This document shows positions 44,962 to 50,945 of a stretch of DNA of 64,000 nt, in pieces. The stretch is from the sequence record OL964735.1, one strand, 5' to 3'. The position numbers and the translations under genes were made by a program. Position 1 is the first letter of the stretch, and every line of letters begins with the position of its first letter. The DNA comes from Escherichia phage T4. A model generated the notes under the pieces. That model was not told the origin of the DNA. It did no database searches and saw only the letters and a list, made by a program, of their open reading frames with translations.

Positions 44962-45977
44962 CATTATGTTCAGATAAGGTCGTTAATCTTACCCCGGAAT
45001 TATATCCAGCTGCATGTCACCATGCAGAGCAGACTATATCTCCAACTTGTTAAAGCAAGTTGTCTATCGTTTCGAGTCACTTGACCCTACTCCCCAAAGG
45101 GATAGTCGTTAGGCATTTATGTAGAACCAATTCCATTTATCAGATTTTACACGATAAGTAACTAATCCAGACGAAATTTTAAAATGTCTAGCTGCATCTG
45201 CTGCACAATCAAAAATAACCCCATCACATGAAATCTTTTTAATATTACTAGGCTTTTTACCTTTCATCTTTTCTGATATTTTAGATTTAGTTATGTCTGA
45301 ATGCTTATGATTAAAGAATGAATTATTTTCACCTGAACGATTTCTGCATTTACTACAAGTATAAGCAGAAGTTTGTATGCGAACACCGCACTTACAAAAC
45401 TTATGGGTTTCTGGATTCCAACGCCCGTTTTTACTTCCGGGTTTACTGTAAAGAGCTTTCCGACCATCAGGTCCAAGTTTAAGCATCTTAGCTTTAACAG
45501 TTTCAGAACGTTTCTTAATAATTTCTTCTTTTAATGGATGCGTAGAACATGTATCACCAAACGTTGCATCAGCAATATTGTATCCATTAATTTTAGAATT
45601 AAGCTCTTTAATCCAAAAATTTTCTCGTTCAATAATCAAATCTTTCTCATATGGAATTTCTTCCAAAATAGAACATTCAAACACATTACCATGTTTGTTA
45701 AAAGACCTCTGAAGTTTTATAGAAGAATGGCATCCTTTTTCTAAATCTTTAAAATGCCTCTTCCATCTCTTTTCAAAATCTTTAGCACTTCCTACATATA
45801 CTTTATTGTTTAAAGTATTTTTAATCTGATAAATTCCGCTTTTCATAAATACCTCTTTAAATATAGAAGTATTTATTAAAGGGCAGTCCTACAATTTAGC
45901 ACGGGATTGTCTACTAGAGAGGTTCCCCGTTTAGATAGATTACAAGTATAAGTCACCTTATACTCAGGCCTCAATTA
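44962..45977 (-). mobile_element. group I intron in td (1016 nt) carrying I-TevI
   Basis: intron begins UAAUUGAGGCCUGAG immediately after exon 1 GGU and ends in G; contains GIY-YIG ORF. Confidence 0.93.
45109..45846 (-). CDS. intron-encoded GIY-YIG homing endonuclease I-TevI
   Basis: 245-aa ORF starting MKSGIYQIKN...KVYVGSA. Confidence 0.95.
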   Translation of the reverse strand: MKSGIYQIKNTLNNKVYVGSAKDFEKRWKRHFKDLEKGCHSSIKLQRSFNKHGNVFECSILEEIPYEKDLIIERENFWIKELNSKINGYNIADATFGDTCSTHPLKEEIIKKRSETVKAKMLKLGPDGRKALYSKPGSKNGRWNPETHKFCKCGVRIQTSAYTCSKCRNRSGENNSFFNHKHSDITKSKISEKMKGKKPSNIKKISCDGVIFDCAADAARHFKISSGLVTYRVKSDKWNWFYINA

Positions 45978-47558: not shown

Positions 47559-47958
47559 ACTTTTTGAAAGTTTTTCGCAAAAGTTCAATGATTTCATCTA
47601 CATTGTTTTCGTCAACAATGCAGTGAATTTTTGTTACGCCAGAAACCTTGTCTTTGACTTCATCTTCTTCAGAAGTCGGTTCTTTATATTCGCGGAAACA
47701 ATAAAACTCTTCTTCACTAAGTTCAAAATAATCATCACCCATACCATCATCATTATAGATTTCACCATTAGCACAAATGATTTCGGTTACATAATCAAAG
47801 CCATCTAAACTTGATATTGATTTAACTTCAAACCAACCGCCATTTTCTTGAATGATGCCGACCATACTAGCATTTGATGAACTAATATCAATGAAAGATT
47901 TAATACGATGTGGATTTAACTCGTATTTTTTGCCGATTTCCATTTTGATTTTCCTCAT
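47557..47958 (-). CDS. hypothetical protein (frd.2 position)
   Basis: 133-aa ORF. Confidence 0.6.
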   Translation of the reverse strand: MRKIKMEIGKKYELNPHRIKSFIDISSSNASMVGIIQENGGWFEVKSISSLDGFDYVTEIICANGEIYNDDGMGDDYFELSEEEFYCFREYKEPTSEEDEVKDKVSGVTKIHCIVDENNVDEIIELLRKTFKK

Positions 47959-47988
47959 TTTAATAGGGGCTTGATAGCCCCTTGATAA

Positions 47989-48216
47989 TTATTGTTCAAT
48001 CAGTCCCATGTAAAATTCTGCGTCTTCAGAATCCATGCCATCACAATATTCATTAGCCATAAAGCGGGTGAGGTCTTCAAGAGGACCTTCAATAACGATT
48101 TGAATACTCCAAAACTTAGAATCTTGCACGCTTGTGATACTAAGTTCAGGATAACGATTACGAATAATCTCTTCAATATATTCAAAATCAACGATGTCAA
48201 TATCAACTTTAGCCAT
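47989..48216 (-). CDS. hypothetical protein (frd.3 position)
   Basis: 75-aa ORF. Confidence 0.55.
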
Positions 48217-48254
48217 ATTATTTTCCTCTTTAATTATTAGCAGTATTGCCGATA

Positions 48255-48291
48255 GTTGTATAGTACCATAAAGCTTTATGCTTGTAAACCG
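48255..48291 (-). promoter_or_regulatory. early promoter (GTTTACA, 17-nt spacer, TACTAT)
   Basis: minus strand motifs about 40 nt upstream of the frd.3-position ORF. Confidence 0.5.
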
Positions 48292-48310
48292 TTTTGTGAA
48301 AAAATTTTTA

Positions 48311-48339
48311 AAATAAAAAAGGGGACCTCTAGGGTCCCC
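48311..48339 (-). terminator. intrinsic terminator after gene 32
   Basis: minus strand GGGGACC-CTAGA-GGTCCCC hairpin followed by TTTTTTATTTT. Confidence 0.75.
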
Positions 48340-48361
48340 AATTAATTAGTAATATAATCTA

Positions 48362-49267
48362 TTAAAGGTCATTCAAAAGGTCATCCAGGTCCGTGTCATC
48401 AGCACTAGATGAACTACCAGAGCTTGAGCTCATAAAATCATCTTCAGTTTTTGTATTGAAGTCATCAACATTGAATGCATCCAAATCATCAGCAACTTTA
48501 TCAGCTTTCTTAGCAGCAGTTGCAGCAGCACCGCCCATCACAGCAGTTCCCATAACTTGACCGAATTTAGTATTAAGTTCTTCAAACGATTTGAATTTAT
48601 CTTTAGAAGTCATTTCAGAAAGGTCAACCATTTGTTCGAACAGTTCTTTCTGGAAAGATTCATCGTCAATGTTTGGAATCGCAGATTGATTCAGGAATTT
48701 AGATTCATCGTAGTTACTAAATCCAGAAACTTGTTTAACTTTCAGTACAAAGTTAGCACCTTCCCACGGACAAGTTACATCAACTGGAGTTTCACCCATT
48801 TCAACATCAACCGCAATCATTGCATTGATTTTATCCCAGATTTTCTTACCGAAACGGTATTTAAATACTTTACCTTCGTTTTCTGGAGCAGCTGGGTCTT
48901 TTACTACAAGAATGTTAGCCCAGTAAGAAGTTTTACGTTTAACAAGACTGTACTCTTTATTGTCAGTGTTGTATAGATCATTTTTACTGATGTATTGACA
49001 TACTGGGCAAGAATCGTAATCACCATGGGTAGATGAACATGTTTCAATATACCATTTACCATTTTTCTTGAAACCGTGATTTACAAGAATTGCGAATGGT
49101 GCTTGTTCATCATTTTTAGACGGAAGAAAACGAATTACTGCTTGACCGTTACCCGCATTATCGAGTTTCAGTTTCCACTCGCCTTTATCTTCAGAAGAAA
49201 AACCTTTATTGCCATTCAGTTTAGCCATTTGTGCAGCGAGTTCAGCAGTAGATTTACGTTTAAACAT
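48362..49267 (-). CDS. 32: single-stranded DNA-binding protein (T4 gp32)
   Basis: 301-aa ORF; zinc site H...CPVC; acidic C-terminal tail. Confidence 0.96.
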
Positions 49268-49337
49268 TTTTATTTCCTTTTTAATTTAATTTAATTAACA
49301 GTTGGTGCTATGACACTTTACCTCATAGCTGGCATAA
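49268..49337 (-). promoter_or_regulatory. gene 32 autoregulatory translational operator (AU-rich tract plus upstream pseudoknot-forming hairpin)
   Basis: mRNA-sense leader GCUAUGAGGUAAAGUGUCAUAGC then UUAAUUAAAUUAAAUUAAAAAGGAAAUAAAAAUG. Confidence 0.7.
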
Positions 49338-49955
49338 TTCGCAATACTCTGGGTCTTCGAGAGGTATCCAACCTGAGTTGAAATACTTTACCATCGATTT
49401 AGCAGTTGTATCAGTTATATTTATATTACCTTTAACTCTTCGCCATCCAGGAGTTTTACCGTACAGATTAGAGGATAATAATAACACATAATTCTCGTAA
49501 GCAATATGAGATAATTTCCAAGACTCTATATTAGCTCGTGATGTTTTCCAAGGTCTAAAATCGTCACGGTTCATATAATTAGCCAATCTCATATGCTCTC
49601 TAACTTCCGGGTCTTTGGCTGGATGAGTTTCACCACTCACACCAAATCCACCACCAGCATATACCAGATTAAAATAGTCTGGATTATCTCTGGCATTTAC
49701 TTCAAGTTGGTATTTTCGTTCTGCTTCAATAACATCCAAGTCATCATCAATTTGAATTATTTTAACGCTCGGTTTTTGAAGCATTAGCGCATTCAAAAAT
49801 CTTTTTTGTTTACATGAGCTCCAGTATTCCTTTCCGGAAGAGTCATATATTATTCCGTTCTCAAATGAGCAATTTAATTTACTACCGATATAGTAGTATG
49901 GCGGAGTCTTATTTTTGACACGGTCTTCAAATGTAAACCAATATACTATATTCAT
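49323..49955 (-). CDS. segG: GIY-YIG-like homing endonuclease (SegG-like)
   Basis: 210-aa ORF; N-terminal IVYWFTF...PPYYYIGSK; inserted between genes 32 and 59. Confidence 0.8.
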   Translation of the reverse strand: MNIVYWFTFEDRVKNKTPPYYYIGSKLNCSFENGIIYDSSGKEYWSSCKQKRFLNALMLQKPSVKIIQIDDDLDVIEAERKYQLEVNARDNPDYFNLVYAGGGFGVSGETHPAKDPEVREHMRLANYMNRDDFRPWKTSRANIESWKLSHIAYENYVLLLSSNLYGKTPGWRRVKGNINITDTTAKSMVKYFNSGWIPLEDPEYCELCQL

Positions 49956-49956
49956 A

Positions 49957-50610
49957 TCAATACTTGCAAGATTTCACAGTTTCAATGAAAACATTTTTAG
50001 CTTTCTGTGAATCAATATTTAAAATTTTTCTATAAGCCTTTAACTTTATAGAATAATTATTCCAGACTAAATTATCAGTCTGTTCATCATGTTTATCAAT
50101 TATATTTAAAAACGAATCAAGCAAGATAAACGTCTCAAACGAAATTATGTTCGATTGCAGAAGTTTAAAAATATAACTTGATTGAACTTTTGGATTATAC
50201 TCAAAAATTTCTTTAAAAGCAGAAACTTCAACTTTTTTACTAAAATAATAAATGTTGCGAATATCTTCTTCAAACTTAAATTTAATTTGCTTTAAGCGTC
50301 CGATATATTCACGATAAAACACAAGTGCATCAGCGTCAGAGATGTCACCAATCCAAGCATCTTGGTTAGCAACCAAATTGCTTATAAAGATTAAAGCAAG
50401 TTCCTTTAATTTATATTTTTCTGATAACTTCTGGAAAAAATACTTATCCCTTCGCTTTTGATAAGCGGCATCAGACACCCGCATGCACCAATTATACTTA
50501 ATTACATCATACTTTCCATTCATATGTTGTTTTATCATTAAGTATAATTTATAAACTGATTTACCATCAATGTATCTTTCACCACCAGCAGGCATGCGGA
50601 GTTTAATCAT
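49957..50610 (-). CDS. 59: helicase loader (T4 gp59)
   Basis: 217-aa ORF. Confidence 0.92.
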   Translation of the reverse strand: MIKLRMPAGGERYIDGKSVYKLYLMIKQHMNGKYDVIKYNWCMRVSDAAYQKRRDKYFFQKLSEKYKLKELALIFISNLVANQDAWIGDISDADALVFYREYIGRLKQIKFKFEEDIRNIYYFSKKVEVSAFKEIFEYNPKVQSSYIFKLLQSNIISFETFILLDSFLNIIDKHDEQTDNLVWNNYSIKLKAYRKILNIDSQKAKNVFIETVKSCKY

Positions 50611-50945
50611 AGTAGAAAATCTAATGTATTAGTTTTTTCACAACGAACAACAGAAGGACGTAAAAGATTTTCGTCAATAGCTTCTGACTGAATTTTTTCA
50701 ATTATACCCGAAGGAATAAATTTAGCAAATTGAGTTTCAGGAATAGAATTTTCTTCTAAGAATGCTGTTGTAGCTTCAAGATAACTCATTCCAAACTCTT
50801 CTACCATTTTTTCAATAATAAATCCATTTTCTTGGCGGTCAAGAAGCTTTGCTATTTCATCCTTTTCTTTCTTAATTGAAAGTTCTTTTTCTGAAAGACC
50901 GGTCTCATCGACCGGACGAATATCATTTAGAGAAAACTGTGTCAT
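50607..50945 (-). CDS. 33: late transcription co-activator (T4 gp33)
   Basis: track starts at TTG 50954; ATG 50945 gives 112 aa. Confidence 0.88.
   Translation of the reverse strand: MTQFSLNDIRPVDETGLSEKELSIKKEKDEIAKLLDRQENGFIIEKMVEEFGMSYLEATTAFLEENSIPETQFAKFIPSGIIEKIQSEAIDENLLRPSVVRCEKTNTLDFLL

Follow-up and report, generated by a model that had tools for sequence, protein, structure and literature searches.

The segG homing endonuclease gene of bacteriophage T4 ends within the gene 32 operator pseudoknot, probably as an incidental result of its insertion

In bacteriophage T4 the homing endonuclease gene segG terminates inside the pseudoknot of the gene 32 translational operator. This overlap was confirmed here, but has been known since 2004 (PMC535899). 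We infer, at a probability of roughly 0.8, that it is an incidental by-product of the insertion of segG hard against a pre-existing operator, and that the control of gene 32 is largely insulated from its neighbour. New relative to the published T4 work are the covariation of the pseudoknot across eight variants, the database counts of its two alleles and the comparisons of the junction in other genera; new as well is the indication from aligned homologues that the C-terminus of SegG is no longer than theirs, so that the published 'chimera' would amount to three codons and a stop. Positions refer to the window, i.e. the whole 64,000-nt stretch of T4 DNA that was analysed (OL964735.1).

Locus and gene order

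The region from 48300 to 50700 (2.4 kb) is 100% identical to a phage T4 genome record, and a total of 729 phage records were matched with it. The gene order on the minus strand is rnh, dsbA, 33, 59, segG (the 210-aa ORF) and 32, followed by frd.3 onward; segG is free-standing between genes 59 and 32 and has the same orientation as both. The following features were predicted:

49957-50610, minus strand: gene 59, helicase loader (Pfam T4_Gp59_N and T4_Gp59_C, E about 1e-53)
49323-49955, minus strand: segG (32.1), free-standing Seg-type homing endonuclease, 210 aa, ATG start (PHROG 7504, annotation in T4 records, PMC2988022, PMC535899)
48362-49267, minus strand: gene 32, gp32, ssDNA-binding protein and autogenous translational repressor (Pfam gp32, E = 4.9e-67)
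48321-48339, minus strand: intrinsic terminator 3' of gene 32 (terminator scan)

A single nucleotide lies between the gene 59 UGA and the segG AUG (UGAUAUG). When the minus strand was scanned for terminators from gene 59 to the end of gene 32, the sole terminator-like site was that at 48321-48339, and none was found between segG and gene 32. The first-pass annotation, which had described a 210-aa segG-like ORF at 49323-49955 and had raised read-through into gene 32, thus was right on both counts: the ORF is present as described and encodes a Seg-type endonuclease, and read-through transcription is real, as there is no terminator to prevent it.

The window also contains I-TevI, the homing endonuclease of the td intron (45109-45846, minus strand), which is ordinary for T4 and was used as GIY-YIG reference.

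SegG and its family

The ORF is T4 segG itself, not just segG-like: it carries the annotation segG or 'homing endonuclease' in T4 and relatives, and its product matches PHROG 7504 ('homing endonuclease') with E = 1.3e-133. Sequence profiles failed to place the protein in the GIY-YIG class. Searches of Pfam and NCBIfam with T4 SegG, including the curated GIY-YIG profiles, gave zero matches, and SegE_GIY-YIG was matched once, weakly (E = 0.035), among 26 members of the SegG family. Nothing was found for SegG by phmmer against the PDB; the family profile retrieved no GIY-YIG protein from the PDB (top match, an isochorismatase-family protein, E = 1.2), and hhalign aligned just 23 C-terminal columns of this profile with I-TevI (probability 0.3).

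The motif residues of the class (GIY...YIG, catalytic Arg, Glu and Asn) are nevertheless present in the N-terminal domain of about 100 aa. In an alignment of 26 SegG-family sequences Y22-I23-G24, E79 and N96 are invariant, Y5 is nearly so, and R52 is largely conserved; we take these residues to be the equivalents of the catalytic residues of I-TevI. SegG also matches PHROG 314 (E = 1.3e-7, profile positions 184-392), in the same region as the I-TevI of the window (positions 177-389, E = 5.9e-51). The top PDB structural match of the AF2 model of SegG (pLDDT 91) is the I-TevI catalytic domain 1LN0, a non-significant match (E = 1.3, TM 0.49), and its structural matches in BFVD include Seg-like and GIY-YIG-named viral proteins (E 1e-4 to 1e-3). 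On the conserved motifs, the PHROG 314 match, the predicted AF2/BFVD fold matches and the literature, in which SegG appears among the GIY-YIG enzymes, with gene 32 as its cleavage target (Edgell et al. 2010, PMC2988022), we accept SegG as a putative Seg-type GIY-YIG endonuclease. As Liu et al. (2003) are summarized in PMC2988022, PMC2330249 and PMC535899, SegG cleaves gene 32 of segG-less phages, which leads to co-conversion and marker exclusion.

Gene 32 is polymorphic at +227/+228 (window 49040-49041, codon 77). The codon is Thr ACA in seven of seven segG-containing genomes and in one of nine segG-less genomes, and Asn AAC/AAT in the remaining segG-less ones. This polymorphism is a candidate target-site or immunity polymorphism of SegG, and its near co-segregation with segG may lend indirect backing to SegG cleavage and co-conversion.

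The gene 32 operator pseudoknot

The leader is numbered from the gene 32 AUG at 49267. It reads GAAUUA-UGCC-A-GCUAUGA-GGUA-AAGUG-UCAUAGC-ACC, followed by UUAAA/UAAA repeats and AAGGAAA, and comprises these elements:

49307-49334, minus strand: gene 32 operator pseudoknot, -67 to -40 (sequence, covariation, folding, PMC535899, PMC3014915)
49334-49331 with 49322-49319, minus strand: stem 1, UGCC/GGUA (leader sequence)
49330, minus strand: loop 1, a single A (leader sequence)
49329-49323 with 49313-49307, minus strand: stem 2, GCUAUGA/UCAUAGC (leader sequence)
49318-49314, minus strand: loop 2, AAGUG (leader sequence)
49323-49325, minus strand: segG stop codon UGA, -58 to -56 (final three bases of the 5' strand of stem 2)
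49268-49306, minus strand: A/U-rich unstructured part of the operator (UUAAA/UAAA repeats) and Shine-Dalgarno sequence AAGGAAA (sequence, PMC535899)

The last three codons of segG (Cys-Gln-Leu) and its UGA are thus made of pseudoknot bases (UGCC A GCUAUGA). The ORF had initially been placed with its end in a hairpin-forming part of the leader at 49268-49337. The stop codon does lie in stem 2; the interval itself corresponds to the processed leader in full (-1 to -70), which is structured only from 49307 to 49334.

Covariation was evaluated across eight distinct leader variants, namely T4, T2 and six IMG/VR contigs from T4-like phages. All cells (100%) pair, and compensatory double changes are present in four of the seven pairs of stem 2; the observed pairing score was matched by none of 500 shuffles, and slid controls collapsed. 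The outer pairs of stem 1, which is 4-5 bp long, covary, and a single A forms loop 1 in all eight variants. The pairing is thus not due to chance. Nested MFE folding of the leader yields the stem-2 hairpin. The MFE z-scores were about 0 for the leader, where the score covers nested structures only since nested folding is unable to represent a pseudoknot, and for the segG start region, in which there was no sign of a structure that sequesters the start. An Rfam scan of 47900-50700 returned no family for the gene 32 pseudoknot, and its lone match was spurious (scaRNA, E = 0.37).

The position of the pseudoknot and the downstream repeats and ribosome-binding site agree with PMC3014915 and PMC535899. 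According to these reports, the pseudoknot nucleates gp32 binding and translational repression. Borjac-Natour et al. (2004, PMC535899) give a footprint of T4 gp32 on the leader that extends from +3 to -70, note that in T4 the segG reading frame enters the pseudoknot at its 5' part (their Figure 3), and propose segG to be a chimera that reads into the pseudoknot of the recipient.

At 49310-49338 the plus strand, opposite the pseudoknot and the 3' end of segG, contains a match to a sigma-70-like promoter whose -10 is extended (ATGACA-17-CATAAT, TG upstream). Earlier papers have reported antisense transcripts of gene 32.

Promoters, translation start and RNase E processing

The middle and late promoters of gene 32 are located within segG, past its start codon (PMC2988022). 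The corresponding sequence elements, and the RNase E site, are as follows:

49498-49505, minus strand: MotA-box-like AUUGCUUA (UUGCUUA, about 49503; -236), inside segG (motif scan)
49418-49425, minus strand: late-promoter consensus TATAAATA, -158 to -151, inside segG (motif scan, PMC2988022)
49335-49340, minus strand: GAAUUA, -73 to -68, segG Glu206-Leu207, matching the published RNase E -71 region (sequence, PMC3014915)

Judged by its motif, AUUGCUUA may belong to the middle promoter of gene 32. No recognisable Shine-Dalgarno sequence was found when the start context upstream of segG was checked. RNase E cuts all gene 32 mRNA species 71 nt 5' of the AUG, and the upstream part is rapidly degraded (Uzan & Miller 2010, PMC3014915); segG transcripts are processed by RNase E (Edgell et al. 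2010, PMC2988022). Position -71 corresponds to 49338, within GAAUUAU (-73 to -67) and five codons ahead of the segG stop. The AAUUAU motif is likewise found 5' of the T2 pseudoknot, so that the segG/leader junction is resolvable to about 10 nt at best, and the motif may be derived either from the leader (it aligns with the T2 spacer) or from segG (it aligns with Lys/Glu-Leu codons of the homologues).

Gene 32 would be insulated in two ways. The promoters inside segG lie past its start codon, and most gene 32 mRNA would hence be without a translatable segG; further, the cut at -71 would produce one uniform leader that starts 4 nt 5' of the pseudoknot, whatever the origin of the transcript. The cost would be borne by segG, whose ORF would be parted from its stop by the cut and whose upstream fragment would be quickly degraded, and the cut may thus help to keep SegG low, as expected for a homing endonuclease.

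On an uncut polycistronic transcript, a ribosome that completes segG must unwind both stems, and the gp32 footprint (+3 to -70, PMC535899) spans the last segG codons; some cross-talk is physically possible. We see a slim chance that it is functional, in that ribosomes which terminate at the UGA in stem 2 unfold the pseudoknot of polycistronic transcripts and briefly lift the repression by gp32, or in that operator-bound gp32 blocks the completion of SegG and couples both syntheses. While such an effect would fit the stop codon (-58 to -56) within the pseudoknot (-67 to -40), the missing terminator between segG and gene 32, the published footprint up to -70 (PMC535899) and a segG AUG 1 nt past the gene 59 stop, which permits coupled translation, it fits poorly with a segG that has no recognisable Shine-Dalgarno sequence, with gene 32 promoters internal to segG (PMC2988022) and with the cleavage of every gene 32 mRNA at -71 (PMC3014915). 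It is further disfavoured by the same pseudoknot architecture in segG-less T2-type phages, by homologous Seg genes at this site without a pseudoknot overlap, and by the variability of the C-terminal segG codons (E/K at codon 206). The chance is similarly slim that the junction is a working regulatory one, where gp32 on the operator and the -71 cut gate the completion of SegG, its output tracking the free-gp32/ssDNA state, and where ribosomes terminating in stem 2 open the pseudoknot for a short time on early polycistronic mRNA and delay the onset of gp32 autorepression.

Tequatrovirus relatives with and without segG

The segG body, with the shared bases left out, was found in 141 INPHARED records at 97.6-100% identity, many of them annotated as segG; they include one partial T4 fragment, which ends before the leader. 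The T4-type pseudoknot (38-mer) was found in 140 INPHARED records, and their breakdown by organism is that of the segG records minus the partial one. The T2-type pseudoknot (41-mer) was found in 356 INPHARED records, which are segG-less; among the matches listed (60 of the 356), none has a CDS annotated under the pseudoknot. Together the two alleles cover 496 of the 497 records that match the region at ≥95% identity, and by INPHARED record counts no genome was found with a T4-type pseudoknot and without segG.

Phage T2 has no segG and carries a non-coding 59-32 spacer of 99 nt with its own TATAAATA. Identity between T4 and T2 restarts at CCAGCUAUGAGGU, which is identical in the T2-type spacer. 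GCUAUGA is also found in the segG-less T2-type phages, where it is non-coding; since it is shared in this way, the stop codon most probably pre-existed the insertion.

Seven segG-containing and nine segG-less loci were compared in detail. The fixed differences between the groups are all upstream of -48 and affect loop 2 and the 5' strand of stem 1; this agrees with the first-pass proposal that the insertion boundary coincides with a regulatory RNA structure. The segG-linked block ends inside the pseudoknot, broken only by a 13-nt identity island. The pseudoknot architecture is the same in both groups. Other polymorphisms at the locus are not linked in this way. The AATTA repeat number is polymorphic within the segG-containing phages and common to both groups, as are the gene 32 alleles at +52 to +63 (e.g. 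Salmonella phage Lv5cm contains segG together with a T2-like 5' end of gene 32), and codon 206 of segG is E or K among the segG-containing phages.

That the pseudoknot allele and segG are completely linked is attributed to the 13-nt island, which is too short for homologous exchange, and to SegG-driven co-conversion from a cut inside gene 32; with just 13 nt of identity between segG and the allele-specific parts, the pseudoknot allele would be inherited together with segG. The linkage might also mean that the pseudoknot allele and segG are co-adapted.

In two loci segG is frameshifted into two ORFs, with an unchanged leader and pseudoknot: L004 (1318-1951, an IMG/VR T4-like contig) and L086 (1301-1859, a 'mutant T4 clone'). 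These are either degenerate copies that are kept in place or sequencing errors.

It is unlikely that entanglement with the gene 32 leader favours the keeping of segG, i.e. acts as a form of addiction. The same argument has been made for embedded promoters (PMC2988022), and degenerate segG appears to be kept rather than deleted (frameshifted with the leader intact in L004 and L086; truncated 32.1 in VR7), but the overlap comprises just three codons and the promoters alone would have the same effect, and 356 segG-less genomes thrive on their own spacer promoters. The failure to find a genome with the T4-type pseudoknot and no segG would also be expected under retention; however, a homology island of 13 nt is too short for recombination, which accounts for the missing pseudoknot-only recombinants.

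Other variation was observed around the locus. Past about +880 of gene 32, several segG-less Tequatrovirus records (L006, L094, L096) diverge completely from T4. Gene 32 is annotated as longer in one record (IME537) and as a joined CDS of two pieces in another (EcNP1), so that the 3' end of the gene may carry an insertion or encode an alternative C-terminus in such records. An extra ORF is located between genes 33 and 59 in the T4-like contigs L019 (682-1290, 202 aa) and L103 (172-867, 231 aa, with an I-TevI_DNA-bd Pfam match), and the 33-59 gap probably is a second landing site for homing endonucleases, just upstream.

SegG-family genes at the 59-32 site in other genera

For SegG, 29 homologues were detectable, and all those examined are located between genes 59 and 32. 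The homologues of Dhakavirus VR5, Bp7 and MX01 (58% identity) stop about 30 nt 5' of the homologous pseudoknot, and that of metagenomic contig L101 (64% identity) stops 22 nt ahead of a pseudoknot; in L103, L104 and Yersinia phage MHG19 a SegG-family gene is located upstream of a pseudoknot-less leader, and VR7 has a truncated 32.1 remnant at the site. Among the junctions examined, a stop codon within the pseudoknot was found in the T4 type only. Since the SegG homologues located at this site end outside any pseudoknot, the overlap is not a conserved design.

Two more general descriptions of the junction were rejected. Reading into the leader has not given segG a net extension, since its ORF in T4 stops as many codons after 'EDPE' as those of homologues P0003 and P0004. 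Nor does segG carry a pseudoknot everywhere as a general rule, for the leaders of L103, L104, MHG19 and NC-G are pseudoknot-less.

In phage NC-G (L106, 693-1389), a SegG-family ORF of 33% identity is located between genes 59 and 32, upstream of a pseudoknot-less JS98-type leader. Its 3' end enters the native spacer (TGCTTCA...TAA-TATACT, resembling a MotA box and a -10) and stops at a TAA there. By its sequence, this is a putative second Seg ORF that ends in gene 32 regulatory sequence, with the same reading-on to the first stop in the host leader as in T4.

In Dhakavirus, a T4-like pseudoknot leader (ACCU-A-GUUAUCA-AGGU-AAAYG-UGAUAAC) was found in 14 database records, with a SegG-family gene between 59 and 32 in every one of those examined, and a pseudoknot-less 90-nt spacer (JS98 type) in 35 records. 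Among the loci compared, the pseudoknot leader is present in L083, L099, L100 and L107 and absent from L097 and L098. The operator structure may have moved together with the endonuclease by co-conversion in this genus.

Origin of the overlap and relation to known systems

The preferred reading is that of an incidental overlap. A terminator-less segG cassette would have been inserted between genes 59 and 32, directly against the existing gene 32 operator; the coding part homologous to the family would end at Leu207 (GAA UUA, -73 to -68), and the pseudoknot bases would supply the remainder.

The object is identical to the published T4 segG/gene 32 locus, with the same sequence, gene order, overlap, internal promoters and -71 site (Borjac-Natour et al. 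2004, PMC535899; Edgell et al. 2010, PMC2988022; Uzan & Miller 2010, PMC3014915). It resembles segA, segE, mobB and mobC (PMC2988022), which also are mobile endonuclease genes between essential genes, are co-transcribed and have host regulatory signals in or abutting the ORF; segG differs from them in its entanglement with a translational operator RNA and an RNase E site, besides the embedded promoters.

The T2 type offers the closest comparison for the pseudoknot itself. The T2/T6 gene 32 pseudoknot is an NMR model system. Like that of T4 it is of the H-type, with an identical 7-bp stem 2 (GCUAUGA/UCAUAGC), a single-A loop 1 and a stem 1 closed by CC/GG, whereas T2 and T4 differ in stem 1, with 5 bp (UGACC/GGUCA) in T2 and 4 bp, including a G-U pair, in T4, and in loop 2, with 7 nt and 5 nt, respectively. 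The T2 pseudoknot is located in the non-coding 99-nt spacer with its own TATAAATA, whereas the T4 pseudoknot is partly coding, as the end of segG. The SegG-family genes of Dhakavirus (VR5, Bp7, MX01, NC-G), VR7, MHG19 and the metagenomic contigs share the site upstream of gene 32 (33-64% identity); unlike T4, their stops are 22-30 nt 5' of a pseudoknot, or they are located upstream of a pseudoknot-less leader.

The matter is a small one and the phage is the textbook T4, but segG presents a selfish endonuclease cassette that has become physically tangled up in the regulatory RNA of a neighbouring essential gene, the control of which would be kept by promoters inside segG, by RNase E processing and by pseudoknot alleles that are compensated. 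The pseudoknot allele belongs to the segG block and travels with it across about 500 genomes. SegG-family genes have repeatedly landed in the 59-32 gap in several genera, and the pattern in Dhakavirus hints that homing-driven co-conversion can carry a translational operator between lineages.
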